Positions 3,039 through 60,669 are shown, counted from the first letter of the stretch. The stretch is DNA of 64,000 nucleotides from Lentisphaeria bacterium (GCA_041648735.1 JBAZOO010000005.1:1862-65861), one strand, 5' to 3'. The notes: generated by a model from the sequence alone, not told the origin. A program made the numbers and translations.

Positions 3039-4013
3039 ATGCTCATCGGCCTCACCTACGACCTGCGCCAGGACTACCTCGCCCTTGGCTATTCCGAACT
3101 CCAGGTCGCCGAATTCGACGAAGAGCGCACCATCGCCGCCCTCGACCGCACCATCCAGGAGCTGGGCCACCGCACCGACCGCATCGGCCATGCGAAGAAG
3201 CTCTGCGAACGGCTGGTCAAGGGCGACCGCTGGGATCTCGTCTTCAACATCGCCGAAGGCGTCGCCGGCCGCAACCGCGAAGCCCAGGTGCCCGCGCTGC
3301 TCGACCTCTACGGCATCCCCCACACCTTCGCCGACGCCCTGGTCTGCGCCACCACCCTCGACAAGGCCGTCGCCAAACGCATCGTCCAGGCCTGCGGCCT
3401 GCGCACGCCGGCCTTCGCCGTGGTGCGGACTCCGCAAGAGGCCGCCGCGGTGAAGCTGCGCTATCCGCTCTTCGCCAAGCCGGTCGCCGAAGGCACCGGC
3501 AAGGGGGTCACCGGCAAGTCGCGCGTCGCGACCCCGGCGGAGCTGGCGCCGGCCTGCCAGGCGCTGTTTGCGGAGTTCGCGCAGCCGGTGCTGGTCGAGG
3601 AATACCTGCCCGGCCGCGAGTTCACCGTCGCCGTCCTCGGCACCGGCAGCCGGGCCCGCGCCCTCGGCACCATGGAGATCCACGTCCAGGATTCCGCGGG
3701 CAGCGGCATCTATTCCCACGACAACAAGGAGAACTGGGAGGGGCGCGTCCGCTATTCCAGCCCGGCGCGGGACGCCTTCCGCGCCGCCATCGAGAAGCTG
3801 GCCGTGGATTGCTATGTCGCCCTCGAATGCCGCGATGCCGGCCGGGTTGACATCCGCCTCGACGCCGACGGCCAGCCCAGCTTCATGGAGGTCAACCCCC
3901 TGGCCGGCCTCAACCCCGGCCACTCCGACTTGCCGCTGATCGCCGAACGCGAGGACCTTTCCTACCGCGACCTGATTGGCGCCATCCTTGACAGCGCCAA
4001 GGAACGGCTCTGA
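3039..4013 (+). CDS. ATP-grasp ligase, D-alanine--D-alanine ligase-like
   Basis: Real start MLIGLTYDL at 3039; the upstream part of the listed ORF is a Pro/Arg shadow. DKAVAKRIVQACGLRTP...YPLFAKPVAEGTGKGV...VLVEEYLPGREFTV...EVNPLAG is the ATP-grasp fold pattern. Confidence 0.75.
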   Translation: MLIGLTYDLRQDYLALGYSELQVAEFDEERTIAALDRTIQELGHRTDRIGHAKKLCERLVKGDRWDLVFNIAEGVAGRNREAQVPALLDLYGIPHTFADALVCATTLDKAVAKRIVQACGLRTPAFAVVRTPQEAAAVKLRYPLFAKPVAEGTGKGVTGKSRVATPAELAPACQALFAEFAQPVLVEEYLPGREFTVAVLGTGSRARALGTMEIHVQDSAGSGIYSHDNKENWEGRVRYSSPARDAFRAAIEKLAVDCYVALECRDAGRVDIRLDADGQPSFMEVNPLAGLNPGHSDLPLIAEREDLSYRDLIGAILDSAKERL

Positions 4014-4045
4014 GCCTCCGCCCGCCCCGCCCGGAGCGCCCGCCC

Positions 4046-5071
4046 ATGCCTGACCATTCCGTCCTGATCCTCCACAACGCCCCGCCGGCCGACGCGCTCG
4101 AAAGCGAGAAGGGCGTGCTGGCGGAAGTCGCCGCCGTCGCCGGGGCGCTGGGGGAGCTGCGGATTCCGCACCGCATTGCCGGGGTTGCGGAGTCCGCGGC
4201 GCTGGCCGGCGTGCTGGCCGCCGCGCCGGAAGCGGTGGTCTTCAATCTCGTCGAAGGCTTTCCCGGCGATCCCGCCGCCGCCAACGCCGTCCCCGATCTC
4301 TGCCGGGCTGCTGGCAAGGAATGCACCGGCAACTCGACCGCGGCGCTGGCGCTGGCTTTGGACAAGGCCCGGGCCAAGGCGGCGCTGCAGGCCGCCGGCC
4401 TGCCCTGTCCCGGCGGCGTCCAAATCCTCCCCGGCGAAGCGGTCCCGCATGGACTCCTGCCCCGGGGCACCGTGATCCTCAAGCCCGCCGCCACCGACGC
4501 CAGCGAGGGGATTGACGAGGACGGGGTGCTCGACAGTGCGGACTCCGCACGGCTGGAGGCGGTCCTGCGCCGGCTGCACGCGCAATTCCGCCAGCCGGTG
4601 CTGGTGGAGCCGTTCATTGACGGCCGCGAGCTGAACGTCGCCGCCTTCGAGCAGGCTGGCGAACTCCGCGTGCTGCCGCTGGCGGAGATCGAGTTTGCGG
4701 AGTTCGCACCCGGCAAGCCGCGGATCGTCGGCTACCGCGCCAAATGGGACGAGGGGAGCTTCGAATGCCGCAACACCCGCCGCGTCATCCCGGCACCGCT
4801 GCCGGAAGCCGCGGCGGCGCGGCTCCGCGCCCTGGTGCGCGCGGCCTGGCGCGCCTGCGGCCTGCGCGACTATGCCCGGGTGGATTTCCGCCTCGATGCC
4901 GCCGGCGAGCCGTTCATCCTCGAAGTGAACCCGAACCCGGACATCGCCCCCGACGCCGGCTTCGCCGCCGCCCTCGCCGCCGGCGGCGTCCCGTTCCGCG
5001 AGTTTGTGGAAATGATGGTCGCCAATGCCCGCGGCCGCCTCGCCACCGCCACCGCGGCGGCGCGCCCCTGA
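4046..5071 (+). CDS. Second ATP-grasp ligase, Ddl-like
   Basis: DKARAKAALQAAGLP...VILKPAATDASEGI...VLVEPFIDGRELNV...ARVDFRLD...ILEVNPNPD. Sits 32 nt after the previous gene. Confidence 0.75.
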   Translation: MPDHSVLILHNAPPADALESEKGVLAEVAAVAGALGELRIPHRIAGVAESAALAGVLAAAPEAVVFNLVEGFPGDPAAANAVPDLCRAAGKECTGNSTAALALALDKARAKAALQAAGLPCPGGVQILPGEAVPHGLLPRGTVILKPAATDASEGIDEDGVLDSADSARLEAVLRRLHAQFRQPVLVEPFIDGRELNVAAFEQAGELRVLPLAEIEFAEFAPGKPRIVGYRAKWDEGSFECRNTRRVIPAPLPEAAAARLRALVRAAWRACGLRDYARVDFRLDAAGEPFILEVNPNPDIAPDAGFAAALAAGGVPFREFVEMMVANARGRLATATAAARP

Positions 5072-5106
5072 ACGAACGAGACCCTGCTTCCCACGGACAA
5101 CCGGCC

Positions 5107-6046: not shown

Positions 6047-7858
6047 TCAGGCGCGGCGGCCGAAGCGGCGTTCCAGTTCGGGGTGGGGGATGGTGATCAT
6101 GACCGGGCGGCCGTGGGGGCAGGTGTAGGGCATTTCGGCGGCGGCGAGGTCATGGAGGAGCTGGTTGACTTCGAGGGGGCGGAGGGGATCCTCGGCCTTG
6201 ACGGCGTGCTTGCAGGCGGCCTGGGCGATGCGGAGTTCGTCGGGGCGCGGGGTGCTGGCGGCGGCTTGGCGGAGGTCGTCGAGGATGTCGCGGAGCAGGC
6301 CGCCGAGGTTTTCGCCGGGGAAGCCGGCGGGGACGGCGGTGACGAGGAAGCTGTTGCCGCCGAAGGCGTCGAGGCCGAAGCCGAGTTTGTGGAAGTGCTC
6401 CAGGTGGTGGCGGAGCAGGGCGGCGTCGGCCGGGGCGAGGTCGAGGTGGACGGGGATGAGCAGCGGCTGTCCCTCGGCTTGGGCGGACTCGGCGGCGCGC
6501 AGCAGTTTCTCGAAGAGGATGCGTTCGTGGGCGGCGTGCTGGTCAATGAGGACGAGGCCGGCGGCGCCTTCGGCGACGAGGTAGAGGTTGTTGAGGGTGC
6601 CGAGGATGCGGAGGGCGCGGATTTCCGCGCGGGTGGCGCTGGAGACGGAGGTGCCGGCGGGGGCGGTGGCCGGGGCGCTGGGCGGTGGGGCGTTCCGTGG
6701 CGGGGTGGGGGTGAGGCCGGCCATTTCCGGCTGCTGTTCCGGCGGGGTGAGGGTGAGGGGTTGGGGCGGCGTGGGGAAGCGGGCGCCCTGGCTGGCGAGC
6801 GGCCGGCCGGGGGCGGCGGGCGTGGCGGCGGCGACGGCGGCGAGGGAGGGCTGGAGGGCGGGTTCGCCGGCGAGGGCGCGCAGGGCGCGGCGCACGGCGG
6901 CGGCGACGACCTGGCCGGTGAGGAGGGCGTCGCGGAAGCGGACTTCGCGCTTGGCCGGATGGACGTTGACGTCCACGGCGTCGGGGGGGGCCTCGACATA
7001 GAGGATCAGCGGCGGGTAGCGCCCTTTCATCACCAGGGTGTGGTAGGCGTCGCGGGCGGCGAAGAAGAGGCAGTCGGCGGCGGCGGGGCGGCCGTTGACG
7101 AAGAAGCGCTGTTCGCGGCGGGTGCCGCGGGTGAAGCCGGGGCGGGCGATGAAGCCATGGACGCGGATGCCGGCTTCCTCGTAGGCGACGGGCAGGAGGG
7201 CGGCGAAGAGGTCGCGCCCGAGGAGCATGGCGACGCGGGTGCCGGGGTCGCCGCTGGCGGAGACCTGGAGCGCGGGCTGGTCGTCCACGATCAGTTCGAA
7301 GGCGACGCCGGGGTGGGCGAGGGCCTGGAGGAGGACCGTCTCCTGGATGTGCTCGCTCTCGGTGGTGGCGCCGCGGAGGAACTTGCGCCGGCCGGGCAGG
7401 TTGAAGAAGAGCTGGGCGACGCGGACGCTGGTGCCGGGGGCGCAGCCGCAGGCCCGGCAGTCGCGGAGGGTGCCGCCTTCGACCCGCACCTCGGTGCCCT
7501 CCAGGGCGTCGGCCTGGCGCGTCTGGAGCTGGAAGCGGCTGACGGAGGCGATGCTGGGCAGGGCTTCGCCGCGGAAGCCGAGGGTGACGATGTGCTCGAT
7601 GTCGGCGGCCTGGCGGATCTTGCTGGTGGCGTGGGGTTCGAGGCAGAGCAGGGCGTCGTCGCGGTCCATCCCGCCGCCGTCGTCCTGGACTTGGATCAGG
7701 CTTTTGCCGCCGTTGCGGCTGTGGATGACGATGCGGCGGGCGCCGGCATCGATGGCGTTTTCGGCCAGTTCCTTGACGACGGAGGCGGGGCGTTCGATGA
7801 CCTCGCCGGCGGCGATGCGGTTGGCGATTTCGTCGGGCAGTACGCGGATGAGGCTCAT
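6047..7858 (-). CDS. mutL: DNA mismatch repair protein MutL (endonuclease-type)
   Basis: MSLIRVLPDEIANRIAAGEVIERPASVVKELAENAIDAG (GHKL ATPase). C-terminal DQHAAHERILFE and CPHGRP motifs. The listed 1149-aa ORF reads through upstream, and the true ATG is at 7858. Confidence 0.9.
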   Translation of the reverse strand: MSLIRVLPDEIANRIAAGEVIERPASVVKELAENAIDAGARRIVIHSRNGGKSLIQVQDDGGGMDRDDALLCLEPHATSKIRQAADIEHIVTLGFRGEALPSIASVSRFQLQTRQADALEGTEVRVEGGTLRDCRACGCAPGTSVRVAQLFFNLPGRRKFLRGATTESEHIQETVLLQALAHPGVAFELIVDDQPALQVSASGDPGTRVAMLLGRDLFAALLPVAYEEAGIRVHGFIARPGFTRGTRREQRFFVNGRPAAADCLFFAARDAYHTLVMKGRYPPLILYVEAPPDAVDVNVHPAKREVRFRDALLTGQVVAAAVRRALRALAGEPALQPSLAAVAAATPAAPGRPLASQGARFPTPPQPLTLTPPEQQPEMAGLTPTPPRNAPPPSAPATAPAGTSVSSATRAEIRALRILGTLNNLYLVAEGAAGLVLIDQHAAHERILFEKLLRAAESAQAEGQPLLIPVHLDLAPADAALLRHHLEHFHKLGFGLDAFGGNSFLVTAVPAGFPGENLGGLLRDILDDLRQAAASTPRPDELRIAQAACKHAVKAEDPLRPLEVNQLLHDLAAAEMPYTCPHGRPVMITIPHPELERRFGRRA

Positions 7859-10383: not shown

Positions 10384-10496
10384 GCGCGGGGCTTTCGGGG
10401 GGCGGTGGGCGGTGGCGGGTGGCGCGATCCTCTCCGCAACCTAACCCCAGCTTGCGGACTCCGCAACCGCCTCCGAAGCCGCGGTTTTCTGCGTTT

Positions 10497-13517: not shown

Positions 13518-16310
13518 TCAGTAGCGGAAGTCGGGGATTCCGCGGACTTCGCTGCTGCGCATCGGCAGGCCGGAGGGATAGACCAGGCGCGGCGTGACGA
13601 AGATCAGGAGGTTGTATTTCTCCTTGTTCTTGCCGGAGGAGTGGAAGAGGCGGCCGATGAGGGGGAGGTCGCCGAGGAGCGGCACCTTGTCCTTGTAGGT
13701 GGTCTCCCGCTCGCCGATGAAGCCGCCGAGGACGACGGTCTCGCCGTCCCAGACGATCACGTTGGTCTCGACGGTGCGTTCGTCGAAGATCGGCATGTTG
13801 TAGAGCCACTCACTCTCCACCGCACCAGTCTCCGAATTTATCCGGCGAGGGCTGTTCAGGGAGGTGTCATAGCCGAGGAACTCGCGGACTTCCGGCTTCA
13901 GTTCGAGGCTGATGGAGTACTTGTCGGCGCCGACGACCGGGGTGACGGTGAGGATCACGCCGACGTCGGTGGCCTCGTCGTCAAACTGCGGTTCGGCGGC
14001 GGGGAGTTCAACGACTGTCGTACCAGTGCCGGTTCCACCACCGACGTTGACGTCCGGGTTTTCCCAGGAGGAGACGAACCTCTGGCGCTTGGCCTTGCGC
14101 AGGACGGCGGTCTTGCCGCTGATGGTGGTGACCTTGGGCGCGGAGAGGATGTCGGCCGAGCCGCTCTGGCTGAGGGCGTCCATGACCACCGAGAAGTCGG
14201 CGTCGCCGATGATGGCGCGGCCGTTGAGGATGGAAGTGGCCAAGGAGGTGGGGAGGCCGAGGCCGGTGGTCGCGCTGCGCAGGCCGGAGGTGATGGTGCT
14301 GGGGTTCATGACGCCGGTGGTGGTGCCGCGGATGAGCTTGCCGGTCTCGGCGAACGGGACCAGCACGGGGTTACCGGTGATCGGGTCGATTGCCGATCCG
14401 GGGACGCTGGAGCTTCCGATGTTGTTGTTCAGGGTCCACTGGAAACCGAACATGTCGAGGTTCTTCATGGAGACCTCGACGAACTTCGCCTCGATCGTCA
14501 CCTGTGGGGTGGGGGTGTTGACTTCCAGCATGAGATCCTCGAACTTGCGCAACTGCTCGGGGGTGTTGCGCACGACCAGCTTGCTGGTGCGGGGGTTGAA
14601 GGAGACGCTGGCGCCACGGGGGAACTCGACGCCCATGCCGCTGAAGAATCCCATCAGGCGGGCGCTGTCGTTCACCATCCCTTCGCCGCCGCCGCCGCCG
14701 ACTTCCTGGGCGGCTTCACCGCCGAGGCCGCCGAGCCCCGTGGCGGTGGTTTTCTGGGCGAAGACCTCGATCACGCCGGGCTCGATCGGGAAGAAGCGGG
14801 TCTCCATGGGATCCAGCTCGACGCTCTTGTCGGCGATCACCACGGCGTGGGTTTCGATGCGGTACTTCAGGCCGGCCGCCTGGCAGACATACTGCAGCGC
14901 CGAGCCGAGCGGGACGTTGGTGATGCTCATGGTGACGGTGCGGCTGGTGACGGGGGGCAGCGCCGCCATTGCCGCGGGGGCGGGGGCGGGCTCCAATTCG
15001 CCAAAGCCGACTCCGGGTTCAGCGCCAAACTCGGGGGCGGGGGCGGGGGCGGCGGGTTCCAGGCGGGGGGCGGTGCCGGCGGGGGCGGTTTCCTGGTGGA
15101 AGATGATGTTGACGCCTTCGCCGGTCTCCTTGTCATAGTCCTTGCTCATCTTGCGGAGATAGGCGACCACTTGCGGGATGGTGGCCTCCTCGAATTCGAG
15201 CGACGGGACGATGATGGTCTGGAGCTTGGCGCGGATGCCGGAGAGCTTGCCGACGCCCTCGAGCCCCGGCCCTTCGGGCTGGGCGCGCGGCACCGGCACC
15301 GGCTCGACCCAGGACCAGCGGGTCTTGGCCATGCGCTCCTTGATCGTGGTTTCGCGGCGGGCGTCGCCGGCCTCTTCCATCTTGACGTAGAGCTGGCGCA
15401 GGGCGCGGGTGGCGGTGGGGTGGTAGGGGTCGCGGAGCAGGACGCGCTCGAACATGTCGCGGGCGTCGCTGTAGCGGCGGTTGGCCATCAGCACCTTGCC
15501 CTGTTCGACCATGGTCTCGAGGCTGGTCTCGCGCTCCGGCTTTTCCGGGTCGATGTAGGCTTCGGCGGTCGCGGCGCGGAACTTGATGTCGCGCTTGGCG
15601 GCGAACATCTCCTTGATCCGCGCGTCCATCTCCGTCTGCATTTTCGGATTGGCCTTTGCGGCCTCGTCGCAGCGGCGGATCGCTTCGTCGTACTTGCCTT
15701 CGTCGGCGAACTTTTCCCCCTGCCGCTCCAGGTCGTCGGCCCAGGCCGCGTAGACGTCACCCTTGGCTTCGACGATCTTGCCGTGCCGGGCGAGGACCGC
15801 CTTGTCGCTGCTGCTGACCTTGGACCAGGCGGCGTCCGCCTGGGCATACTTTTCCAGGGCATCCTTGTACTGGCCGGCGCGGAGGGCCTTGGCGGCCTCG
15901 GTTTCGAGCTGCTGGGCCTTGAGCCGCTGCTCCTCCCGCTGGATCCGTTCCCGCTGCGATTCCTGTTCCACCACGGAAGCGGCGGCGGTGGGTTCGCCCA
16001 TCGCGGGCGCGACCGTTTCGGCGGCGGCGGGGGCTGTGGCGGGTTCGGCAACTTCGGGCTTGGGGGCCTCGGCGGCGGCGGGAACGGCGGCTTCCGCGGC
16101 CGGCGCTTCGGCGGCCTCGGCTTCAGGGGCGGCTTCCGCGGCCGGCGCGGCGGGGGCTTCGGCTTCAGGAGCGGCGGCCGGTTCCGGCGTCACGGCGGCG
16201 GCGGCTTCCTCTTGCGCTTGGGCGACGGGCAAGGCAAGGAAGAGAAGAGACGCCGCCCCGGTGAGGGAGCAGACGACCAAGTGGCGAATCCACGCACGCT
16301 GGTTTTGCAT
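13518..16310 (-). CDS. pilQ: Secretin (type II/type IV pilus secretin family, PilQ/GspD-like; Amuc_1098-like position)
   Basis: C-terminal secretin signature VPLLGDLPLIGRLFHSSGKNKEKYNLLIFVTPRLV. Signal peptide after MQNQRAWIRHLVV...AQAQ (ATG 16310, AGGAGA RBS). Ala/Glu/Pro-rich and TPR-like N-terminal region. Confidence 0.85.
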   Translation of the reverse strand: MQNQRAWIRHLVVCSLTGAASLLFLALPVAQAQEEAAAAVTPEPAAAPEAEAPAAPAAEAAPEAEAAEAPAAEAAVPAAAEAPKPEVAEPATAPAAAETVAPAMGEPTAAASVVEQESQRERIQREEQRLKAQQLETEAAKALRAGQYKDALEKYAQADAAWSKVSSSDKAVLARHGKIVEAKGDVYAAWADDLERQGEKFADEGKYDEAIRRCDEAAKANPKMQTEMDARIKEMFAAKRDIKFRAATAEAYIDPEKPERETSLETMVEQGKVLMANRRYSDARDMFERVLLRDPYHPTATRALRQLYVKMEEAGDARRETTIKERMAKTRWSWVEPVPVPRAQPEGPGLEGVGKLSGIRAKLQTIIVPSLEFEEATIPQVVAYLRKMSKDYDKETGEGVNIIFHQETAPAGTAPRLEPAAPAPAPEFGAEPGVGFGELEPAPAPAAMAALPPVTSRTVTMSITNVPLGSALQYVCQAAGLKYRIETHAVVIADKSVELDPMETRFFPIEPGVIEVFAQKTTATGLGGLGGEAAQEVGGGGGEGMVNDSARLMGFFSGMGVEFPRGASVSFNPRTSKLVVRNTPEQLRKFEDLMLEVNTPTPQVTIEAKFVEVSMKNLDMFGFQWTLNNNIGSSSVPGSAIDPITGNPVLVPFAETGKLIRGTTTGVMNPSTITSGLRSATTGLGLPTSLATSILNGRAIIGDADFSVVMDALSQSGSADILSAPKVTTISGKTAVLRKAKRQRFVSSWENPDVNVGGGTGTGTTVVELPAAEPQFDDEATDVGVILTVTPVVGADKYSISLELKPEVREFLGYDTSLNSPRRINSETGAVESEWLYNMPIFDERTVETNVIVWDGETVVLGGFIGERETTYKDKVPLLGDLPLIGRLFHSSGKNKEKYNLLIFVTPRLVYPSGLPMRSSEVRGIPDFRY

Positions 16311-28469: not shown

Positions 28470-28561
28470 CCAAAGAAAAGCGGACTCCGCGGCCCTGGGG
28501 GCGCAGAGTCCACTGGGGAAACGAGCCTAGCAGTTGCCGCCGGCCGCCACGGACGCGGTGG
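28463..28561. repeat. 99-bp direct repeat, copy 1 (left boundary of island 1)
   Basis: GGCCTGACCAAAGAAAAGCGGACTCCGCGGCCCTGGGGG...GAAACGAGCCTAGCAGTTGCCGCCGGCCGCCACGG. Matches 33101-33199 with 4 substitutions and no indel. Confidence 0.9.
28470..28513 (-). terminator. Degenerate copy of the motif-hairpin terminator (downstream of the methyltransferase operon)
   Basis: Minus strand reads GTGGACTCTGC..loop..GCGGAGTCCGC then TTTTCTTTGG. Two stem mismatches relative to the copy at 33108-33151. Confidence 0.35.
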
Positions 28562-31308: not shown

Positions 31309-31417
31309 AAAACCTCATGTCGCTCTCGTCTGCCTGTAGGTAATTCACGTGTATCATCTTTCCGGCCCAACGCCGCCGGTCTGCGACGAGCGGAGCGAAG
31401 TCCGCAGCATCGGCTGG

Positions 31418-38000: not shown

Positions 38001-39101
38001 TCAGCGTTGGACGCGGGCGGAGCCGCCCTTGGCGAGGGCTTCGACTTCCTTGAGGGTGGCCATGGTGGTGTCGCCGGGGGTGGTCATGGCCAGGGCGCCG
38101 TGGGCGGCGCCGTATTCGACGGCCTGCTGGGGGCCGAGGCCGGCGAGGAAGCCGTAGATGAGGCCGGAGGCGAAGGAGTCGCCGCCGCCGACGCGGTCGA
38201 AGATTTCGAGGCCCGGGCGGCGGGTCGCCTCATGGAACTGGCCGTCGTGGTAGAGGATGGCGCCCCAGTCGTTGCTGGTGGCGCTGCGGACTTCGCGCAG
38301 GGTGGTGGCGACGGCCTTGAAGTTGGGGTAGGCGGCGACGGCCTGGCGGATCATCTGCTGGAAGTTGGCGGGGTCGAGGCCGGTGCAATGTTCGCCGAGG
38401 CCTTCGACCTGGAATCCGAGGGCGGCGGTGAAGTCCTCCTCGTTGCCGATCATGACATCCACCAGCTTGGCGATGCGGCGGTTGACCGCCATGGCGCGCG
38501 GGGTGCCGCCGATGGCCTTCCAGAGACTGGGGCGGTAGTTGAGGTCGTAGCTGACGATGGTGCCGTTGGCCTTGGCGCATTCCATGGCCTCGATGGCGAC
38601 GTCGGGGGTGTGTTCGCCGAGGGCGGCGAAGATGCCGCCGCAGTGGAACCAGCGGGCGCCTTCGTCCTTGAAGATCCGGTTCCAGGCGATGTCTCCCGGC
38701 TTGAGCTGGCTGACGGCGGTGTGGCCGCGGTCGGAGCAGCCGACGGCGCCGCGGACGCCGAAGCCGCGTTCGGTGAAGTTGAGGCCGACGCGGACGTTGC
38801 GGCCGATGCCGTCGTAGGGCACCCATTTGACGTGGGACATGTCCACGCCGCCTTGGAGGATGAGGTCCTCCAGGAGGCGGCCGACGGGGTTGTCGGCGAT
38901 GGCGGTGACGACGGCGGTGCGGAGGCCGAAGCAGCGGCGGAGGCCGCGGGCGACGTTGTATTCGCCGCCGCCTTCCCAGGCCTGGAAGGTGCGGGCGGTG
39001 TGGATGCGGCCGTCGCCGGGGTCGAGGCGGAGCATGACTTCGCCGAGGGAGACTTGGTCCCAGCGGCAATCAGCGGCGGGCCTGAGGGGGAGCTGGTGCA
39101 T
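38001..39101 (-). CDS. kdgK: PfkB-family sugar kinase, 2-dehydro-3-deoxygluconokinase-like
   Basis: Start MHQLPL at 39101. FQAWEGGGEYNVARGL. C-terminal DRVGGGDSFASGLIYG. Confidence 0.8.
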   Translation of the reverse strand: MHQLPLRPAADCRWDQVSLGEVMLRLDPGDGRIHTARTFQAWEGGGEYNVARGLRRCFGLRTAVVTAIADNPVGRLLEDLILQGGVDMSHVKWVPYDGIGRNVRVGLNFTERGFGVRGAVGCSDRGHTAVSQLKPGDIAWNRIFKDEGARWFHCGGIFAALGEHTPDVAIEAMECAKANGTIVSYDLNYRPSLWKAIGGTPRAMAVNRRIAKLVDVMIGNEEDFTAALGFQVEGLGEHCTGLDPANFQQMIRQAVAAYPNFKAVATTLREVRSATSNDWGAILYHDGQFHEATRRPGLEIFDRVGGGDSFASGLIYGFLAGLGPQQAVEYGAAHGALAMTTPGDTTMATLKEVEALAKGGSARVQR

Positions 39102-40756: not shown

Positions 40757-42280
40757 TCAGAGTTCCAGCAGTCGTCGGCTCGCCCTACCCATACCATACT
40801 CCAAAAATTCGCAAAGATGAGACGCCACGGCGGCGGTGAGGCCGGGAAGGGCGTTGAGGTCCTGCCCCCAGAAGGGAATGTGGCCAAGGACGGCCTTGGC
40901 CAGGGCGGTGGCGTCGCCGGTGGCGGCCTGGGCGCGCCAGGCGGTGGTGAAGAAGTCGAGCACGGGCTGGTCGTCGCGGATCGGGTAGGGTTTGCCGTTG
41001 CGGAGGCCGCGGAGTTCGCGCTCGCCGGCGGGTTCGCCGCGGTAGAAGGCGATCAGCGCCGCGAGGGAGAAGGCCAGGCGCGGCGGCAGCCGTTGCCGCG
41101 CCGTCAGGAAGTCGGCCAGGGAGGGGAGGACGCGCACCTTCCATTTGGCGACGGAGTTGAGGCTGATGGCGAGCAGTTCGTGGCGGATGAAGGGGTTGCG
41201 GAAGCGTTCGAGGACGGCTTCGGCGTAGGCGGCCTTGTCGGCGGCGGCCATTTGCAGCCCCGGCAGGATTTCCGCGAACACGGAGTCGCGGACGAGTTTT
41301 CCGAAGAGCGGGTCGGCCATCATCTCGCCGACGGTGTCGAGGCCGGCGAGGAAGGCGGCGAGGACGTTGGCGGTGTGGGCGCCGTTGAGGACGCGGACCT
41401 TGCGGGTGCGGTAGGGGGTCAGGTCGTCCGTCCAGACCACGTTGAGCCCGGCTTGGTGGAAGGGGAGTTCGGCGGCCAGGCTGGCCGGGCCTTCGATGAC
41501 CCAGAGGTGGAAGATTTCGCCGGTGTCGAGGAGGGCGTCCTCATAGCCGAGGGCTGCCGTGATGGCGGCGGCTTCGGTTTTGGGGTAGCCGGGGACGATG
41601 CGGTCGACCAGGGTGTTGCAGAAGAGGCAGTGGCGTTCCACCCAGGCGCGGAGGTCGGTGGCGGCCCCCCAGGCCTGGAGCTGGCGGCGGACGGCCTCGC
41701 GCAGGGTGGCGCCATTTTTCTCGATCAGTTCGCAGGGGAGGACGACCAGCCCTTTTTCCGGGGCGCCGGCAAAGGCCTGGAAGCGTTCGCGCAGCAGGGC
41801 GGCGAGCTTGGCGGGGAAGCTTTCGGGGCAGGCGTCCCGGGGGGCGGGTTCCGCCTGGTAGGCGATGCCGGCCTCGGTGGTGTTGGAGAAGACGAAGCGC
41901 AGGTCGGGGTTGCGTGCCGCGGCGAGGAAGCCAGCCCAGTCCTCGTAAGGGTTGAGGCCGCCGCGGATGCTGGTGACGAGCCGCCGGCTTTCCACGGTCT
42001 GGCCGTCCTGGATTCCGCGCAGCAGCAGGGTGTAGAGGCCGTCCTGGCCGTTGAGGAGGGGGACGAGCCCCTGGCGGATCGGCTGCACCACCTGGATGGC
42101 GCCGGTGAAGAGGCCGCGGCCGTTGAGGATGTCCACCATCCAGTCCACGAAGGCGCGGAGGAAATTGCCTTCGCCGAACTGGAGGATCCGGACAGGCGGG
42201 GGTGGTTCCAGGGGGGCGCATTCGAGGGTGGCGGGGAGGGGCGGGTGGGTGGCGAGGAAGTTGCGGGTGAGGCGGGGCAT
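40757..42280 (-). CDS. uxaB: Tagaturonate (altronate) reductase
   Basis: Start MPRLTRNF at 42280. ILQFGEGNFLRAFVDWMVD, LNGAHTANVLAAFLAGLDTV (mannitol dehydrogenase family). Confidence 0.8.
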   Translation of the reverse strand: MPRLTRNFLATHPPLPATLECAPLEPPPPVRILQFGEGNFLRAFVDWMVDILNGRGLFTGAIQVVQPIRQGLVPLLNGQDGLYTLLLRGIQDGQTVESRRLVTSIRGGLNPYEDWAGFLAAARNPDLRFVFSNTTEAGIAYQAEPAPRDACPESFPAKLAALLRERFQAFAGAPEKGLVVLPCELIEKNGATLREAVRRQLQAWGAATDLRAWVERHCLFCNTLVDRIVPGYPKTEAAAITAALGYEDALLDTGEIFHLWVIEGPASLAAELPFHQAGLNVVWTDDLTPYRTRKVRVLNGAHTANVLAAFLAGLDTVGEMMADPLFGKLVRDSVFAEILPGLQMAAADKAAYAEAVLERFRNPFIRHELLAISLNSVAKWKVRVLPSLADFLTARQRLPPRLAFSLAALIAFYRGEPAGERELRGLRNGKPYPIRDDQPVLDFFTTAWRAQAATGDATALAKAVLGHIPFWGQDLNALPGLTAAVASHLCEFLEYGMGRASRRLLEL

Positions 42281-45423: not shown

Positions 45424-47601
45424 TTACTTGATGAAGAGCATTTCCTGGTAGGTCGGGAGCGGCCAGATCTCGTCGGCCACCACCCCTTCCAGGGCGTCCG
45501 CGGCCGTGCGGAGTTCGCACATCGCGGGGACGACGTGGTCGCGCATGTACTTGGCGTGTTTCAGGGTGTTGCCATCCCCTTCGTGGGCCATGGCCGTGTC
45601 GAGCTTGGCGATGGCGGCCTGGAGCTGGGCGGCGAGGTCGCAGACCTGGTCGAGGATGGTGGTGCAGGGCTTCTTCCCCAGCTCCTTGAGGGCCAGGGCG
45701 GTGCTGGCGAGCTTCTGCTGGTAGTCGAGGGCGGCGGGGAAGATCATCGTCCGCGCCATCTCGGCCATCAGCCGGGCCTCGATGGCGATGTCCTTGACGT
45801 AGCGTTCGAGGTAGATCTCGCAGCGGCTCTCGAACTCGCGGCGGCTGAGGACGTTGTACTTCTCGAAGACCGCGGCGTGCGCCTCATTCTTGGCCATTGC
45901 CTCCCAGGCGTCCACCGTCGTCTTGAGGTTGGGCAGGCCGCGGCGGGCCGCCTCCTGGTGCCAGGCCGCGGAGTAGTTGTCGCCATTGAAGATGACCCGG
46001 CCGTGCTCCTGGATGATCGCCGCGATCACTTTCTGGACGGAGTGGTTCAGCTTCGCGGGGTCGCCGCCGGTGAGCTTTTCGATCTCGCTGGCCACGTAGT
46101 CCAACGACTCGGCGACGATGGTGTTGAGGATCATCTGTGGCCCGGCGATGGACTGGCTGGCGCCGACGGCGCGGAACTCGAAGCGGTTGCCGGTGAAGGC
46201 GAAGGGGCTGGTGCGGTTGCGGTCGCCCGGATCCTTGGGGAAGGTCGGCAGGGTGTCGACGCCGACGTTGAGGGTGCCCTTGGCCTTTGAGCTTTTGGCG
46301 CCGCCCTGGGCGATCTGCATGAAGACGTCGTTCAGCAGGTCGCCGAGGAAGATGGAGATGATCGCCGGCGGCGCCTCGTTGGCGCCGAGGCGGTGGTCGT
46401 TGCCGGCGTGGGCGACGGAGGCGCGGAGCATGACCGCGTACTTGTCCACGGCGCGGATGACGGCGGCGCAGACGATCAGGAACTGCATGTTCTCGTGGGG
46501 CGTCTCGCCGGGGTTGAGCAGGTTGCCGAGGGTGCAGCTCATGGACCAGTTGAGGTGCTTGCCCGAGCCGTTGACGCCGGCGAACGGCTTTTCGTGGAGC
46601 AGGCAGGCCATGCCGTACTTCTGGGCGACGCGGGTGAGCACGGTCATCACCAAATACTGGTGGTCGGTCGCCAGGTTGGCGGTCTCGAACACCGGGGCGA
46701 TCTCATACTGGGCCGGGGCCACCTCGTTGTGGCGGGTCTTGACCGGGACGCCGAGCTTGTAGAGCTCCCGCTCGCCTTCGAGCATGCAGGCGAGGACGCG
46801 TTCGGGGATGGCGCCGAAGTACTGGTCTTCCAGCTCCTGCCCCTTGGGCGGCTTGGCGCCGAACAGGGTGCGGCCGGCGTTGAGCAGGTCGGGGCGGGCG
46901 AAGTAGAAGTTGCGGTCGATCAGGAAGTACTCCTGCTCGGGGCCGGCGGTGGCCTTGACCAGGCCGGGGTTGCCGTTGCCGAGGATCTTGAGCAGCCGCT
47001 GGGCCTGGATGTTGAGCGCCTGGATCGAGCGCAGCAGCGGCACCTTCTTGTCCAGCGCCTCGCCGGTGTAGGAGCAGAAGGCGGTGGGGATGCAGAGGGT
47101 GGTGCCGTTGGGGTTTTCGAGGATGTAGGCGGGGCTGGTGACGTCCCAGGCGGTGTAGCCGCGGGCCTCGAAGGTGGCGCGCAGGCCGCCGGAGGGGAAG
47201 CTGGAGGCGTCGGGCTCGCCTTGGATGAGCTGCTTGCCGGAGAACTCGGCGATCACGCCGTCGCGCCCGTCCGGTTCGAGGAAGCTGTCATGCTTCTCGG
47301 CGGTGAGCCCGGTCAGGGGGTAGAAGACGTGGGCGTAGTGGGTGGCGCCCTTGTCGATCGCCCAGTCGCGCATGGCGACGGCGACGGCGTCGGCCACCGA
47401 GAGGTCGAGCTTCACCCCTTCGTCAATGGTCAGGCGCAGGGCCTTGTAGACCCCCTTGGGCAGCCGTTCGTGCATGGCGGTGTCATTGAAGACGTTCTCC
47501 CCGAAGAGGTCTTTGGACGGGGTTTTGGAGAAGTCGAGGGGCGCCTCCAGCGGCTTGTAGTTGGTCACCGCCTTGATGGCATTCTGTCGGGCGAGGTTCA
47601 T
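45424..47601 (-). CDS. glnN: Glutamine synthetase type III
   Basis: Start MNLARQNAI at 47601. 725 aa. [55 protein letters not shown]. Confidence 0.9.
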
Positions 47602-50063: not shown

Positions 50064-50307
50064 CCGGTCTCCGCTCGTGGCGCGTGGGGAGTGGCGGGAC
50101 AATGTAGCCCGGTTTGCGGACTCCGCATTGGCGAAGAACCTGGATGGATAGGGTTGCAAGCCGCGGCTGCAACGGTACAGTTTTGGGGTGCCCGCCAGCG
50201 CGCGGGGCCGCCGGCCGCATTCCCATTCGGCACCCGGCAATCGAAAATCGGCATTCGGAGTTCAGCGTCACCCCCGGCACGGGGCCGGGAAAACGGAGGG
50301 CACGGGC

Positions 50308-51081
50308 ATGATCATCGGCATTTGCGGCGAGCCGGCACGGAGCGGCCTCTTCGCCGCCATGGGATTCCAGTTCCTGGAAGTGAACATCCAGGAGATGCTG
50401 GTGCCACTGGCGCCCGAGGCGGAGTTCGCGCCGAAGCTGGCGGAATTGCGGAGTTCGCGCCTGCCGGTCAAGGCCGCCAACTGCTTCTTTCCCGCCGGCC
50501 TCAAGCTCACCGGGCCCGCAGTTGATCCCGGGCGGCTCCTGGCCTATGCGGCGACCGCCTGCGAGCGGGCCGGGCGGGCCGGCATCGAGACGCTGGTCCT
50601 CGGCTCCGGCGGCGCCCGCCAGATCCCCGAGGGGTTCCCGCGGGAAGCGGCCGGGGAGCAGCTCCTGGCATTTGCCAAGAGCCTCGGCCCGGTGGCGGCC
50701 AAGGCCGGAGTGACGGTCGTCCTGGAACCGCTCAACAGCAAGGAATGCAACGTGTTCAACACGGTGCCGGAATGCGCGGCCTTCGTCCGCCAAGTCAACC
50801 ATCCCGCCATCCGCCTGCTGGTGGACGCCTACCACTGGTGCCAGGAAGGGGAGGGCGCGGCGGATTTGTTGGCGGCCGCGCCGCTCCTCGCCCATGCCCA
50901 CCTCGCCTCCTGCCCCAACCGCCGCGGCCCCGGCGAGGAGGCGTGCGACTATTCCGCCTTCTTCCAGGCGCTCCAGGCCGGCGGCTATGCGGGCCGGCTC
51001 GCGGTGGAGGCCATCTGGCTCGACCTCGAGCGCAATGGCGCCGCCGCCGTCCGCCTCCTCGAACGCCTCCTGGCGGCCTGA
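50308..51081 (+). CDS. Sugar phosphate isomerase/epimerase (xylose isomerase-like TIM barrel), intact copy
   Basis: Start MIIGICG at 50308. VVLEPLNSKECNVFNT...LLVDAYHW...AHAHLAS. Confidence 0.8.
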   Translation: MIIGICGEPARSGLFAAMGFQFLEVNIQEMLVPLAPEAEFAPKLAELRSSRLPVKAANCFFPAGLKLTGPAVDPGRLLAYAATACERAGRAGIETLVLGSGGARQIPEGFPREAAGEQLLAFAKSLGPVAAKAGVTVVLEPLNSKECNVFNTVPECAAFVRQVNHPAIRLLVDAYHWCQEGEGAADLLAAAPLLAHAHLASCPNRRGPGEEACDYSAFFQALQAGGYAGRLAVEAIWLDLERNGAAAVRLLERLLAA

Positions 51082-52504: not shown

Positions 52505-52708
52505 ATTGCCGCCCTGCCGCGCCTGGAGCTGGCCGCCACCACCACCGGAGCCGCCACGGGGCCGGCGGAGCCCGACCGCGCCGCCCTGCTGGCCGCCCTG
52601 GCACGCCTGGCGGACTCCGCACCCACGGAAGCCGTCCGCCGGGCCGTGGCGCTGCTGCGGGAGGGCGGGAAGATTCCCCCCAATGGGCAATGGCAAGTCG
52701 GCCGCTGA
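52505..52708 (+). pseudogene. Probable 3' remnant of an unidentified high-GC gene at the inner junction
   Basis: The open frame reads ...PDRAALLAALARLADSAPTEAVRRAVALLREGGKIP and ends at 52708. It has no own start and carries one copy of the abundant host motif (52610). Confidence 0.35.
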
Positions 52709-56015: not shown

Positions 56016-56056
56016 TCCCAATTCAACTTCCGTGAAGGCAAACGGCCGGGGCCGGC

Positions 56057-57217: not shown

Positions 57218-57302
57218 GGAACTCTCCGGGATGGGCTGGAAAGTCCTCAACATAATCGCGGATTCCGATTCCCGGTTGCCGGTTGCCGAATTGGAACCTG
57301 GC

Positions 57303-58154
57303 TCAGAGGCAATGGCAGCGGCCCAAGGGACGCCACACCCGCGGCTCGGTGGCGACGAACCGCGCCAGCACCGGAATCCCCAGCGCCGCCGCCAGGTGCG
57401 ACACCCCCGAGTCGTTGCCCACAAACCGCCGCGCCCGCCGCCGCAGCGCCGCCGCCAGTTCCGCCAACGCCAAACCCTCCACCACTTCCGCCGCGACGCC
57501 GGCCGCCGCCAGCGCCGCCAGCACCGGCCCGCGCACGGCGGCGTCCGCCTCCCCGAACGAGACCACCACCGGCGCCCCGGCCGTCCGGAGCCGCCAGCGC
57601 CGGGCGACCTCCGCAAACCAGGCCGGCGCCGCGTTCTTCCGCGGGCTCCCGCTCCCCGGATGCAGCCACAGCGCGGCCGCCTCCCGGTTGCGGCCCGCCG
57701 CGGCCGGCTTCCCCCAGGACGCCAGTTGCGGAGTCCGCAACAAGTCGGCGGGGACGGGCAGGCCGGCGGCGCGCAGGAAGCTGGCGGCGGCGGGTTCCGG
57801 GCCGGTGGGGCGGGGGGGGATCCAGGTGGGCGTGATCCCGTGCCGGGCCAGGTTCGCGGCGAGGGTGGGATCCGCTGCCAGGAAGGCCAGGAACCGCCCG
57901 CCGCGCCAGGTTTCCGGCAGCGTTGCGGACTCCGCAAACAAGGCTGTGCCGGCCGCGGAGTCCGCATCCCGGAAGGTGATGGCCGTGGCCAGTTCCGGCG
58001 GCAGCAGGGGGCGGTAGGCGGGGCGGGAGAGCAGGATGACCGGATCGCCGCGCCGGAGCAGTTCCCGCAGCAGCGGCAGGGTCAGCAGGAAATCGCCGAG
58101 GGCGCCGTTGCGGTAGACGATGGCCGGGGCCTGGGCGGGGCGGCCGGCGCCCAT
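57303..58154 (-). CDS. Glycosyltransferase family 9 (heptosyltransferase-like), intact copy
   Basis: IVYRNGALGDFLLTLPLLREL...FVGNDSGVSHLAAALGIPVLARF. Its ATG overlaps the stop of the upstream TPR gene by 1 nt. Confidence 0.8.
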   Translation of the reverse strand: MGAGRPAQAPAIVYRNGALGDFLLTLPLLRELLRRGDPVILLSRPAYRPLLPPELATAITFRDADSAAGTALFAESATLPETWRGGRFLAFLAADPTLAANLARHGITPTWIPPRPTGPEPAAASFLRAAGLPVPADLLRTPQLASWGKPAAAGRNREAAALWLHPGSGSPRKNAAPAWFAEVARRWRLRTAGAPVVVSFGEADAAVRGPVLAALAAAGVAAEVVEGLALAELAAALRRRARRFVGNDSGVSHLAAALGIPVLARFVATEPRVWRPLGRCHCL

Positions 58155-58804: not shown

Positions 58805-58973
58805 GCGGTCGGGTCTCCCAGGGCGGTGGGCGGGTGGCGGTCGGAGGCATTCCCAAAGGCCGGCTAATGTATCACCTGAAACCCCGCCTGCCCGCGCTTG
58901 CATTCATCTCCGGCTTCGGTAGAGTAGGGGGCTTGGGTGGCCGCCGCCAACTGCCGCGCCTGGGGAGGGGAGA

Positions 58974-59714
58974 ATGGACGCACGCATGACGCCGAGAGCC
59001 GACAGCCCCTCCCATCCCCGACCCGTGCCGCCGCGCCAGCTCCCCGACTTCGGGCTGGTGCTGGCCGGCGGCGGCAGCGGCAGCCGCTTCGGCGCGGCAG
59101 GCAACAAGCTGTTGCTGGAATGGCGCGGCCTGGCCGTCTTCTGCCACCCCCTGCGCACCTTCCTGCCGTTCCTGGCGCCGGCGCACGTGGTGGTCACGGC
59201 GCCGCCGGCGCTGCTGGCGGAGTTCCGCGCGGCCTTGGCGGCGGCGGGGCTGCCGGTGGCCATCCGGGTGCTGCCGGGGGGCGTGACGCGGCTGGACTCG
59301 GTGGCCGCCGGGGTGGCCGCCCTGCCGCCGGCGGTGCGCCACGTGGCCGTCCAGGATGGTGCCCGCCCCTTGACTTCGGCGGAGCTGTTCCTGGCCTGTG
59401 CGGAGTCCGCACGGCGCCATGGCAGCGGCGTCGCGGCGCGGCCGGTCACCGACACGATCAAGGTGGCGGACGCCGCGGGGCTGGTCCTCGCCACCCCCGA
59501 CCGCGCCAGCTTGTGGGCCGCGGAGACGCCGCAGGTTTTCCGGCGCGACTGGCTGGAGGACGGCTTGCGCTCGGCCCGCGCCCGCGGCGTGGCGGCCACC
59601 GACGACGCCCAGGCGGTAGAGCTGGCCGGCCATCCCGTCCGCCTGGTCCGCGCCACCGCGGCCAATCCGAAGATTACCTGGCCGGATGACTTGGAACGGC
59701 TGTTGCCGGCGTGA
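58974..59714 (+). CDS. ispD: 2-C-methyl-D-erythritol 4-phosphate cytidylyltransferase
   Basis: LVLAGGGSGSRFG...VAVQDGARPL...PVTDTIK...ETPQVF...TDDAQAVE...NPKITWPDDL. Confidence 0.85.
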   Translation: MDARMTPRADSPSHPRPVPPRQLPDFGLVLAGGGSGSRFGAAGNKLLLEWRGLAVFCHPLRTFLPFLAPAHVVVTAPPALLAEFRAALAAAGLPVAIRVLPGGVTRLDSVAAGVAALPPAVRHVAVQDGARPLTSAELFLACAESARRHGSGVAARPVTDTIKVADAAGLVLATPDRASLWAAETPQVFRRDWLEDGLRSARARGVAATDDAQAVELAGHPVRLVRATAANPKITWPDDLERLLPA

Positions 59715-59790
59715 TTGCGGGCGGCTTCCGGGGCTACAGTACCGGCGTTCTTCCACCGTCCCGGCCCGAACCTTGCGGAGTCCGCACCCC

Positions 59791-60669
59791 ATGCAGCACC
59801 GCTTCTGGAAATACGAAGCCCTCGGCAACGACTATCTGGTCCTCGACCCCGCCAGTTGGGGCGAGGGCGCGCCGCCGCCGGCCGCGGCCATCCGCCGGCT
59901 GTGCGACCGCCATTTCGGCCTGGGCTCCGACGGCATCCTCTGGGGGCCGCTGCCGGCCGCCGGCGCCCTTTGCGGACTCCGCATCTTCAATCCGGACGGC
60001 AGCGAGGCGGAGAAGAGCGGCAACGGGCTGCGCATCTTTGCCCGCTTCCTGCTGGACAGCGGCCGGGCGCGGGCGGCGGCGCCCTTCCAGGTCAACACCC
60101 TGGGCGGGGTGGTGGAGTGCCGGGTGCTGGCCGGCGGCGGGCGGGTGCGGGTTGGCATGGGGCGGGTCAGCTTCCGCAGCGGCGACATTCCGGTGGCGGG
60201 GGAGGACCGGGAGACGCTCCACGAAACGACGCTGGTCGGCAGCCCCATGACCCCGATCATCTTCTGCGCCGCCTCGGTCGGCAACCCCCATTGCGTCGTG
60301 CTCAACCCGCCGACGGTGGACGAGGCGACGGCACGCCGGCTCGGGCCGCTGCTGGAGACGCACCCGCTGTTCCCCAAGCGCATCAACGTCCAGTTCCTCC
60401 AAGTGCTGGACCGGCATGCGATCCGCATCGAGATCTGGGAGCGTGGCGCGGGCTATACCCTGGCCTCGGGCAGCAGCGCCAGCGCCGCGGCGGCCGCGGC
60501 CTGCAAGCTCGGGTTGTGTGCCAGCCCCGTGCGGGTGCGGATGCCGGGCGGCGACCTGGAGGTCGAAGTCGCCCCCGACTTCCAGGTCGTCCAGACTGGC
60601 CCGGTCCGGGCCGTGGCCAGTGGTGAGGCCGCCGCCGACCTTTTGGCGGCCCTCGCCGGCGAAGGCTGA
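59791..60669 (+). CDS. dapF: Diaminopimelate epimerase homologue with Ser in place of both catalytic Cys
   Basis: FWKYEALGNDYLVLD, RIFNPDGSEAEKSGNGLRIFARF, VGNPHCVV, WERGAGYTLASGSSASAA. The fold signature is clear, but the CGNG and SGAC cysteines read SGNG and SSAS. Confidence 0.75.
   Translation: MQHRFWKYEALGNDYLVLDPASWGEGAPPPAAAIRRLCDRHFGLGSDGILWGPLPAAGALCGLRIFNPDGSEAEKSGNGLRIFARFLLDSGRARAAAPFQVNTLGGVVECRVLAGGGRVRVGMGRVSFRSGDIPVAGEDRETLHETTLVGSPMTPIIFCAASVGNPHCVVLNPPTVDEATARRLGPLLETHPLFPKRINVQFLQVLDRHAIRIEIWERGAGYTLASGSSASAAAAAACKLGLCASPVRVRMPGGDLEVEVAPDFQVVQTGPVRAVASGEAAADLLAALAGEG

Follow-up and report, generated by a model that had tools for sequence, protein, structure and literature searches.

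The 64,000-nucleotide stretch of DNA analysed here (the window; GCA_041648735.1, JBAZOO010000005.1:1862-65861), part of the metagenome-assembled genome (MAG) of an uncultured Lentisphaeria bacterium, carries among other genes two ATP-grasp genes, a yitJ-like gene, folC, ispD and dapF, together with two AT-richer islands, and is dotted, in genes as well as in spacers, with exact copies of a short palindrome, GCGGASTCCGC (where S is C or G). An earlier note on this DNA had listed 18 copies of this 11-mer, 12 of them extended to the 13-mer TGCGGASTCCGCA (TGCGGA-C/G-TCCGCA); a recount returns the same 18 and, among these 18, the same 12, one listed position (36888) being a typing error for 36878. 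Our data on the motif come from about 73 kb of the Lentisphaeria MAG and about 110 kb from its relatives (about 180 kb together). Compared with other assemblies of this organism, the window shows no difference (100% identity).

Shuffling the window while preserving dinucleotides produces on average 0.20 copies of the 11-mer (2 at most) and 0.02 of the 13-mer, and a third-order Markov model predicts 0.12 copies of the 11-mer, in agreement with the earlier estimate of well under one (0.1-0.2 by either model); a fifth-order model, already over-fitted at 64 kb, predicts 1.75. The 11-mer is absent from 1.37 Mb of loci drawn from 82 other bacterial genomes, including 224 kb at 68% GC or above. The match is also sharply bounded. 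Fully 18 of the 27 GGASTCC heptamers in the window belong to the complete 11-mer, and the version with A or T at the centre occurs only once, at position 4159, so that the centre base is restricted to S (C:G = 11:7 on the plus strand). Outside the 11-mer, T and A are found at the ±1 positions in 66% of cases and are more weakly preferred at ±2. The unit is an 11-mer with a G:C centre, preferred T/A at ±1 and a weaker T/A preference at ±2; flanking sequences share no similarity beyond ±2 nt, and the sites are therefore not parts of a larger repeat or mobile element. A 1.9-kb duplication in the window contains no copies.

We next consider whether coding constraints might generate such a pattern. 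Across 33 genes (42.9 kb), called by third-position GC and in several cases compared with public gene calls, we count 11 copies where shuffling synonymous codons yields 0.67 (at most 3 in 500 shuffles) and shuffling codon order yields 0.11. Within the 64-kb window, then, the motif stands above expectation under both a third-order Markov null (0.12) and a codon-aware null (0.67). Six of the genic copies are read in frame 0 (A-D/E-S-A; in the second ATP-grasp gene, folC, the GT9 heptosyltransferase gene and ispD), three in frame 1 (C-G-V/L-R; yitJ, folC and dapF) and two in frame 2 (x-R-T-P; RTP in the first ATP-grasp gene). The motif had been described as frame-independent, which is right insofar as all three frames are used and too strong insofar as frame 0 dominates, a bias to be expected from codon usage, GGA or ACT/AGT being needed in frames 1 and 2. 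Called genes contain eight A(D/E)SA tetrapeptides; six are spelled GCG-GAS-TCC, and four of these six end in GCA, a codon that makes up 3% of alanine codons and supplies the flanking A of the 13-mer. A further 6-7 of the 18 copies fall outside confidently called genes (10454, 28480, 33118, 33141, 52610 and 59775, and probably 50116), so that the motif does occur, as claimed earlier, both in genes and in intergenic DNA, and a single peptide in a single frame does not account for it.

The folC gene illustrates the cost at which copies can be acquired. The window reads TGC GGA CTC CGC (GCGLRT) where relatives have GCPLLT/GCPLL or GCAVL, and one relative (L223) has CGC GGA CTC CGC at the variable residue of ER-x-LR (ERGLR), again with the rare GGA codon. 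This comparison implies that the motif has been gained at poorly conserved positions and has been paid for in amino-acid replacements and rare codons; uptake sequences are reported to behave in the same way (Findlay & Redfield, PMC2817400). At a second folC site, on the conserved peptide AHN-ADSA, the same 11-mer is found in 7/7 motif-bearing relatives examined; in a relative without the motif (L225) the identical ADSA peptide is written GCC GAC TCC GCC. An artefact, be it a repeated peptide, a biased use of codons or oligonucleotides, or the remnant of a repetitive extragenic palindromic (REP) element or a miniature inverted-repeat transposable element (MITE), would gain some credit from the predominance of frame 0 and from this conserved AHNADSA peptide, but it has to contend with copies in three frames and in non-coding DNA, with 11 copies against an expected 0.67, with the rare GCA and GGA codons, with the different codons used by L225 for the same peptide, and with unrelated flanks; we regard it as wildly improbable, and its peptide/codon version is refuted by the codon-aware tests. 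Selection targets the DNA and not the peptide, as the earlier note had argued and as the synonymous shuffle and the use of rare codons now support.

The exact motif is accompanied by a second abundant form. A single one-mismatch class, G4 to A (equivalently C8 to T), giving GCGAASTCCGC or GCGGASTTCGC, is present in 14 copies in the window, compared with 0.3 expected from the third-order Markov model and about 1 per 64 kb in control genomes; in called genes we find 9 against 2.0 by synonymous shuffle. The remaining one-mismatch classes are all at chance level, so that the earlier remark that one-mismatch relatives are frequent is true of this transition and not of the others, and exact copies exceed every one-off class except this one tolerated transition. 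A tally over 175 kb of DNA that carries the motif gives 55 exact sites, 29 with a single variant and 2 with a double one, G4 to A/C8 to T making up 29 of 47 one-offs; double variants do not occur in the 1.37 Mb of control loci. The family is GCGRASTYCGC, at about one site per 2 kb.

Two explanations for the variant might be considered. It may reflect a reader for which a purine/pyrimidine swap is acceptable at this one position, or it is possibly a hotspot for deamination of 5-methylcytosine at the C of the central GASTC. Variants in folC are found at lineage-specific sites, on Glu (GAA) or Phe (TTC) codons that the exact form would turn into Gly or Ser, and outside confidently called genes there are 6-7 exact copies and at most 1-3 variants (Fisher P 0.05-0.45, numbers being small). 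We lean towards a tolerant reader because the folC variants look like independent gains and the non-genic copies are nearly all exact. Variants at coding-limited folC sites, taken with exact copies outside genes, would fit a graded pull towards the optimum that is limited by coding. The positions of all sites, and of the larger features among which they lie, are compiled in Table 1.

Table 1. Exact and variant motif sites and other features of the window (positions counted from its first nucleotide).
Feature	Position	Context
Exact 13-mer TGCGGACTCCGCA	3424..3436	ATP-grasp gene 1 (+), frame 2, VRTP
Exact 11-mer (T...G flanks)	4187..4197	ATP-grasp gene 2 (4046-5071, +), frame 0, AESA
Exact 13-mer	4537..4549	ATP-grasp gene 2, frame 0, ADSA, rare GCA codon
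Exact 13-mer (15-mer TTGCGGACTCCGCAA)	10453..10465	Intergenic, 71 nt upstream of Na+/H+ exchanger-Usp-EIIA gene (7855-10383, minus)
Exact 13-mer	27828..27840	yitJ-like homocysteine methyltransferase/MTHFR gene (+), frame 1, CGVR
Exact 11-mer	28480..28490	11 nt past yitJ stop, within left copy of island-1 102-bp repeat
Exact 11-mer pair, terminator	33101..33151	Minus strand; arms 33118-33128 and 33141-33151, UUUUCUUUGG at 33117-33101
Exact 13-mer	36659..36671	folC, frame 1, CGLR; lineage-specific gain with amino-acid change
Exact 13-mer	36877..36889	folC, frame 0, AHN-ADSA
Exact 13-mer	50115..50127	5' end of recD2 or divergent spacer recD2-AP_endonuc_2 (recD2 start uncertain)
Exact 11-mer (G...A flanks)	52610..52620	Junction fragment between duplicated segment and island 2, in an 83-aa called open reading frame (ORF)
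Exact 13-mer (15-mer)	57727..57739	GT9 heptosyltransferase gene (57303-58154, minus), frame 2, LRTP
Inverted exact pair	57924..57965	57925-57935 and 57955-57965, 30 nt apart; GT9, frame 0, AESA and ADSA; hairpin-capable
Exact 13-mer	59399..59411	ispD (58974-59714, +), frame 0, AESA, GCA codon
Exact 13-mer	59774..59786	Intergenic, ends 5 nt upstream of called dapF start (59791)
Exact 13-mer	59971..59983	dapF, frame 1, CGLR
Variant GCGGAGTTCGC (C8 to T)	3570..3580	ATP-grasp gene 1, AEFA
Two variants (GCGAACTCCGC at 4659, GCGGAGTTCGC at 4697)	4659..4707	ATP-grasp gene 2; mutual reverse complements, 38 nt apart
Variant GCGGACTTCGC	6938..6948	Unannotated 6.0-7.9 kb stretch
Variant	13542..13552	Secretin (PilQ-like) gene
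Variant	28080..28090	yitJ, AEFA
Variant	29819..29829	5' codons of M.PvuII-like methyltransferase gene, island 1
Variant	31395..31405	Island 1, small-ORF region
Variant TGCGAACTCCGCA	32792..32802	Island-1 SSB gene
Variant	38286..38296	PfkB kinase gene region
Variant	41009..41019	Mannitol-dehydrogenase-family gene, RELR
Variant TGCGGAGTTCGCA	45508..45518	Glutamine synthetase III gene
Two direct variants (50419, 50448)	50419..50458	AP_endonuc_2 gene, 29 nt apart
Lys/Ala/Pro-rich protein	28-720	230 aa; degenerate KPAAKPAK-type repeats (33-nt periodicity); no Pfam match
GC-rich stretch	6047-7855	1.8 kb, 73% GC, G-over-C skew +0.28, long ORFs on both strands
Type IV pilus assembly cluster	13518-20435	PilM-like fusion (618 aa), two unknowns, TSP3-repeat protein, 944-aa TPR-secretin
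yidC, rnpA, rpmH	23654-26500	
Island 1 (AT-richer)	28460-33199	M.PvuII-like methyltransferase, 491-aa HEAT-repeat protein, HicA-like and other small ORFs, SSB
102-bp direct repeats	28460-28561, 33098-33199	95% identical; bound island 1 and contain the motif terminator
Island 2 (AT-richer)	50624-57396	TM2/zinc-ribbon genes, 259-314-aa protein of no known family, SPFH/Band-7 gene
1.9-kb direct copies	50624-52504, 55558-57396	99.4% identical, one 42-bp indel; flank island 2; span part of AP_endonuc_2 gene and Peptidase_M24 gene

Might the motif act in RNA, as a transcript hairpin, a terminator or a protein-binding element? On the minus strand, 64 nt past the stop codon of the GGGtGRT gene, the inverted pair at 33118/33141 folds into a 12-bp hairpin with a U-run, UUUUCUUUGG, after it (minimum free energy -33.9 kcal/mol, z -2.1). 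This pair, which the earlier note had taken for a terminator stem, is the canonical intrinsic terminator of that gene, the single clear case in the window. The copy at 28480 likewise belongs to a hairpin; its partner (28503-28513) is now the decayed GCAGAGTCCAC, which still pairs with it through G-U pairs. Pairs thus make strong hairpins, and a decayed arm that keeps its pairing is what an RNA-level element would lead us to expect, but single copies show no folding advantage over shuffled controls (z -0.25 and +0.7), most copies stand alone within genes, the window has no Rfam match, and complementary and non-complementary pair centres are about equally common. An RNA-level role seems real for the paired terminator only and is largely refuted for single copies; as an account of the motif at large we give it very little credence.

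With regard to their arrangement, sites are clumped, with deserts free of exact copies at 10.5-27.8 kb and 36.9-50.1 kb, and copies lie close together more often than expected (38 nt or less in 4 of 31 gaps, P = 0.003), the pairs having variable spacings (17-39 nt) that show no helical phasing. The 9.4 kb beyond the window end, which served as an independent test, contain no exact copy and one variant. It had been noted that exact copies are missing from the AT-richer islands; this is so, and the depletion is not significant (P = 0.19), island 1 holding three variants. The copies at 57728/57925 and 59775/59972 share an identical 197-nt spacing and the same order of centres (G then C) with unrelated DNA in between, which could be coincidence (rough P about 0.05).

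The islands have peculiarities of their own. The repeats around island 1 look like a duplicated attachment site, but no integrase was seen; the SSB of island 1 is devoid of the usual acidic C-terminal tip, the frame continuing into the right-hand repeat. PADLOC and PDB searches with the HEAT-repeat neighbour of the methyltransferase gave nothing informative, and the 83-aa called ORF around 52610, at the junction with island 2, has no family match. The public JGI record and the window disagree at positions 56710 and 56714, both in the second 1.9-kb copy.

To what extent is the motif shared? The nearest FolC among 5.8 billion proteins is 68% identical, so that the lineage is fairly isolated, and we counted the motif on contigs fetched for FolC relatives. 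At least six other lineages carry it (FolC 54-68% identical, GC 59-66%): L220 (FolC 58%, GC 62%) has 5 exact copies in 18 kb, 4 of them outside the shared folC site; L222 (55%, GC 59%) 3 in 15.7 kb, 2 outside; L223 (60%) 2 in 5 kb, 1 outside; L226 (54%, GC 63%) 2 in 12.8 kb, 1 outside; L263 (GCA_041651315.1; 60%, GC 66%) 2 exact, 1 outside, along with 4 variants in 11 kb; and L087 (68%) 1 in 7 kb. Copies other than that at the shared folC site occupy non-homologous, lineage-specific positions. The motif is absent from Lentisphaerota with an equally similar FolC (L224, 21 kb; L225, 14 kb), from further loci (among them L007 and the Lentisphaerota loci L008 and L009) that include a Victivallaceae, a rumen Lentisphaeria and a Thermogutta locus, and from 77 other genomes, and a rough FolC tree groups most motif-bearing genomes together. 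Among the matches listed, YitJ relatives are all distant (60% identity or less) and none has the motif. Metagenome contigs recovered by a scan for motif pairs are, among the matches listed, mostly tandem coding repeats (AESA/ADSA-type); about a dozen are genuine, with GC 55-70% and TTGCGGASTCCGCAA-type pairs, and none of these is DNA-homologous to the window. Conservation in related genomes, which the earlier note had named as a check, thus turns out to follow a clade whose members differ in GC content, neighbouring lineages lacking the motif, and judging from these contigs the motif is a property of that clade independent of base composition. Two of the contigs also hold lengthy tandem arrays that have nothing to do with the motif: L220 has at least 11 copies of a CCCATAACTCC-type unit, and L221 has an array of the AAGGCAGAAGGC type. 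The L220 contig also contains a run of N.

The motif is not confined to cellular genomes. A Mu-like phage contig with MuA, MuB, Gam and GemA (L096, IMGVR_UViG_3300022555_000207, GC 57.6%) has five 13-mers and four variants, hence nine family sites, in 13.4 kb. Two tandem pairs of 13-mers, each 18 nt apart, lie at 1231-1782 in an early HTH_31 gene (ADSAKIADSAN and ADSAEVADSAT), and the fifth exact copy is in the Gam gene. This is the only multi-copy viral contig in IMG/VR: a 15-mer scan returned 36 contigs, the others with single, chance-level matches, and a motif-pair scan 11 contigs, mostly unrelated repeats. A density of this order is hard to attribute to passive drift and suggests that the tag may be useful to DNA living in such cells.

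One way in which it could be useful is as a protective tag in the manner of Chi, with a nuclease or defence pathway sparing or repairing tagged DNA and degrading the rest. That L096 is richer in the tag than loci of its putative hosts (9 sites in 13.4 kb) would be expected if the tag served invaders; the density of about one per 4 kb is near that of Chi in E. coli, and the clade shows extreme sculpting of the restriction type, in that CAGCTG has been purged (see below). Known Chi sequences, on the other hand, are short, asymmetric and strand-skewed where this motif is a long palindrome, and no candidate nuclease has been identified, so that we rate this scenario as rather remote.

The same sites could alternatively be dense targets of an abundant symmetric DNA-binding protein, nucleoid-associated or similar to ParB, KorB, Noc, SlmA or MatP, each maintained by selection for its part in regulation or in organising the chromosome. 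With its 13 bp, two-fold symmetry and central S, the motif has the format of the KorB operator (TTTAGCSGCTAAA) and resembles matS; the over-representation of close pairs (P = 0.003) and the clumping of sites fit, as do the several sites just upstream of gene starts (10454, 59775, 50116) and the tandem pairs in the early HTH gene of L096, as if a host or phage DNA-binding protein were being exploited. One thing that makes us doubtful is the information content of the sites. By relative entropy they hold 19-21.5 bits where their density requires 11-12, an excess of 8-10 bits with degenerate versions almost absent, and real sets of binding sites are usually degenerate; we read an excess of this size as characteristic of the DNA uptake sequence (DUS), the uptake signal sequence (USS) and the highly iterated palindrome HIP1 and not of ordinary protein-binding sites. 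Moreover, at one site per 2-4 kb, mostly in genes, the motif is 10-100 times denser than the sites of Noc, SlmA, MatP or ParB, pairs are spaced variably (17-39 nt) without helical phasing, and sites turn over between lineages instead of being conserved in position. A parS-like element restricted to the origin was considered in view of the nearby rpmH-rnpA-yidC genes, a group that usually lies near the replication origin, and rejected since relatives carry the motif in non-syntenic regions.

Two other stretches deserve brief mention. The Lys/Ala/Pro-rich protein at the left end of the window looks histone-H1/AlgP-like and may be a nucleoid protein. The ORFs of the GC-rich stretch at 6047-7855 have neither coding-like third-position GC nor a family match.

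A third possibility is that the motif is of the HIP type: a clade-specific methyltransferase would modify its centre (for example, by placing 5-methylcytosine at the C of GASTC, position 8), and a methylation-dependent repair bias, as in Elhai's model, would make and keep copies, whose abundance would be largely a by-product. The palindrome with its S centre is like many type II sites, and, as with HIP1 and the alternative HIPs (PMC4390886), copies are hyper-abundant, mostly intragenic and clade-wide. The sole enriched one-off, C8 to T/G4 to A, is the expected product of 5-methylcytosine deamination; the 55:29:2 ratio of exact, single and double forms fits independent change of the half-sites, and the flanking A is less conserved on the mutated side (34% vs 66%). 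We nonetheless hold this to be unlikely, given that 11-13 specified base pairs far exceed any known methyltransferase site, that intergenic copies are almost all exact though a hotspot should hit them equally (P about 0.05-0.4), and that the folC variants resemble independent Glu/Phe gains and not decayed exact sites. Nor do we find a matching enzyme: a regex search of about 190 kb of motif-bearing DNA, a small sample, detected no C5-methyltransferase or Vsr signature, and the sole methyltransferase in 73 kb, encoded beside the terminator that carries the motif, is closely homologous to M.PvuII (E 1e-129; a type II methyltransferase in PADLOC). The link to CcrM and its GANTC site that the earlier note had raised finds no support, the local enzyme being M.PvuII-like (site CAGCTG) and GASTC outside the motif not being enriched.

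The PvuII site itself has an unusual distribution. CAGCTG, which combines the commonest Gln and Leu codons, is missing from the window (0 vs 22 ± 5 in shuffles and 23-44 under Markov models), an unusually complete purge. It is also missing from about 159 kb covering most motif-bearing relatives and L096 (L262, L087, L220, L223, L226, L148, L120, L121). Lentisphaerota loci without the motif have normal numbers (7-16 per 10-22 kb); L222 and L263 are exceptions in which motif and CAGCTG are both present.

The reading that we favour, at a probability of roughly 40%, is that the motif is a clade-specific tag of self DNA, which a bias in uptake, in recombination or in both has spread and which a symmetric protein recognises in duplex DNA; we infer both the force and the reader. 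In outline, GCGRASTYCGC, with its optimum TGCGGA-S-TCCGCA, would serve as an "own-DNA" tag of the DUS/USS-HIP1 class. A putative reader, two-fold symmetric and highly sequence-specific, would bind it in duplex form, and tagged DNA would be favoured at uptake and/or recombination among members of the clade. Tag-creating mutations might then spread by molecular drive, with or without selection, wherever the protein tolerates them and despite rare codons and amino-acid changes, and copies in spacers could secondarily have been recruited in pairs as terminator stems.

Hardware for uptake may be at hand, as the window encodes a pilus assembly cluster of the PilM...PilQ type, and such clusters constitute the uptake machinery of known systems; they are also common, which makes this weak support. 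Pseudopilin genes (N_methyl) are found about 8 kb past the window end (L262 20370-21167). HIP1, for its part, is reported in a recent preprint to raise transformation efficiency in a methylation-dependent manner (bioRxiv 10.1101/2024.09.10.611283).

Several considerations should temper this reading. The evidence is the sequence of an uncultured MAG. The known uptake sequences lack symmetry, and those of Neisseria have a pilin (ComP) as their reader; a palindrome with a constrained G:C centre looks more like the site of an enzyme or a dimer. Only about 73 kb of the genome have been seen, over which sites are clumped, with three deserts of 13-17 kb including the region past the window. The high density and tandem pairs of L096 are not predicted by passive drive and seem better explained by a binding-site or protective function, and the enrichment of the single C to T variant could be a deamination hotspot of 5-methylcytosine. 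Note that this reading and its rivals are not all mutually exclusive.

If self-DNA tagging is nevertheless the correct explanation, the motif might be the first palindromic tag for uptake or recombination, and the first of any shape beyond Proteobacteria and Cyanobacteria, with a symmetric receptor, graded specificity (GCGRASTYCGC) and mimicry by phage; combined with the purge of CAGCTG in most members, it would make for a two-sided code of self and non-self in which one word is enforced and one forbidden. We offer this larger proposal as speculation with the odds well against it.

The element appears not to have been described before, as the earlier note suspected: full-text searches with the motif sequence match only unrelated eukaryotic primers, no paper retrieved joins Lentisphaer* with "uptake sequence", and Rfam and tRNA searches of the window gave no match. 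To our knowledge, DUS, USS and HIP1 are the only well-known hyper-abundant exact words in genomes. The motif would be a fourth, independent example, from another phylum, longer, palindromic, and with a sharply tolerated variant, lineage turnover and a phage copy. As a natural replicate it permits tests of drive versus selection and of methylation versus binding, and it bears on two matters still under debate, the origin of such words and the role of HIP1. In practical terms, the tag marks the DNA of a clade in metagenomes and could aid binning, the assignment of phages to hosts and the detection of recent gene transfer; should it promote uptake or recombination, it would be an obvious addition to constructs intended to make bacteria of the Planctomycetes-Verrucomicrobia-Chlamydiae (PVC) group genetically tractable.

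How does the motif compare with these and other known systems? The earlier analogy with DUS, USS and HIP1 names the right class, in so far as the motif is shared by a clade across GC contents and absent from neighbouring lineages. The DUS core of Neisseriaceae is GCCGTCTGAA and the USS core of Pasteurellaceae AAGTGCGGT. As in those systems, we see a short exact motif, over-represented more than 100-fold at about one per 1-4 kb, which lies in spacers and, within genes, in frames that suit the codons and at weakly conserved residues, and whose inverted pairs form terminators; a family-level clade shares it while its neighbours do not, its information is far above what its density needs, and variants are tolerated at specific positions, much like "dialects". 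Unlike DUS and USS, which are asymmetric and proteobacterial, it is palindromic with a constrained G:C centre, is unrelated in sequence, comes from Lentisphaerota and is known here from sequence data.

HIP1 (GCGATCGC) and the alternative HIPs of cyanobacteria are also GC-rich palindromes, hyper-abundant (15-300 fold), mostly intragenic and clade-wide, and in HIP1, too, one-off deviations concentrate at particular symmetric positions. For the function of HIP1, ties to methylation, repair, chromosome structure and lately transformation have been proposed. The present motif differs in phylum, in its 11-13 bp, odd length and S centre (HIP1 has 8 bp and the alternative HIPs 6-8), in deviating at the inner positions 4/8 where HIP1 deviates at its ends, and in that no cognate methyltransferase was found in the sequence examined. 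Sites of the ParB type (the KorB operator, parS, the Noc site and matS, 13-16 bp) are similar in length, in two-fold symmetry, in being possible within genes and, for KorB, in the central S, but they number tens per replicon, often in one region and with information that matches their number, whereas the motif is 10-100 times denser and turns over. Chi has a similar density and a role in recognising self DNA; it is asymmetric, strand-skewed (which a palindrome cannot be) and enriched only a few-fold. REP elements, finally, are palindromic and terminator-capable like the motif, but repeats of the REP/BIME/MITE kind are extragenic, of greater length, imperfect and built on a conserved extended unit. 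Of the motif copies, at least 60% (at least 11 of 18) are coding, and their flanks are unrelated.

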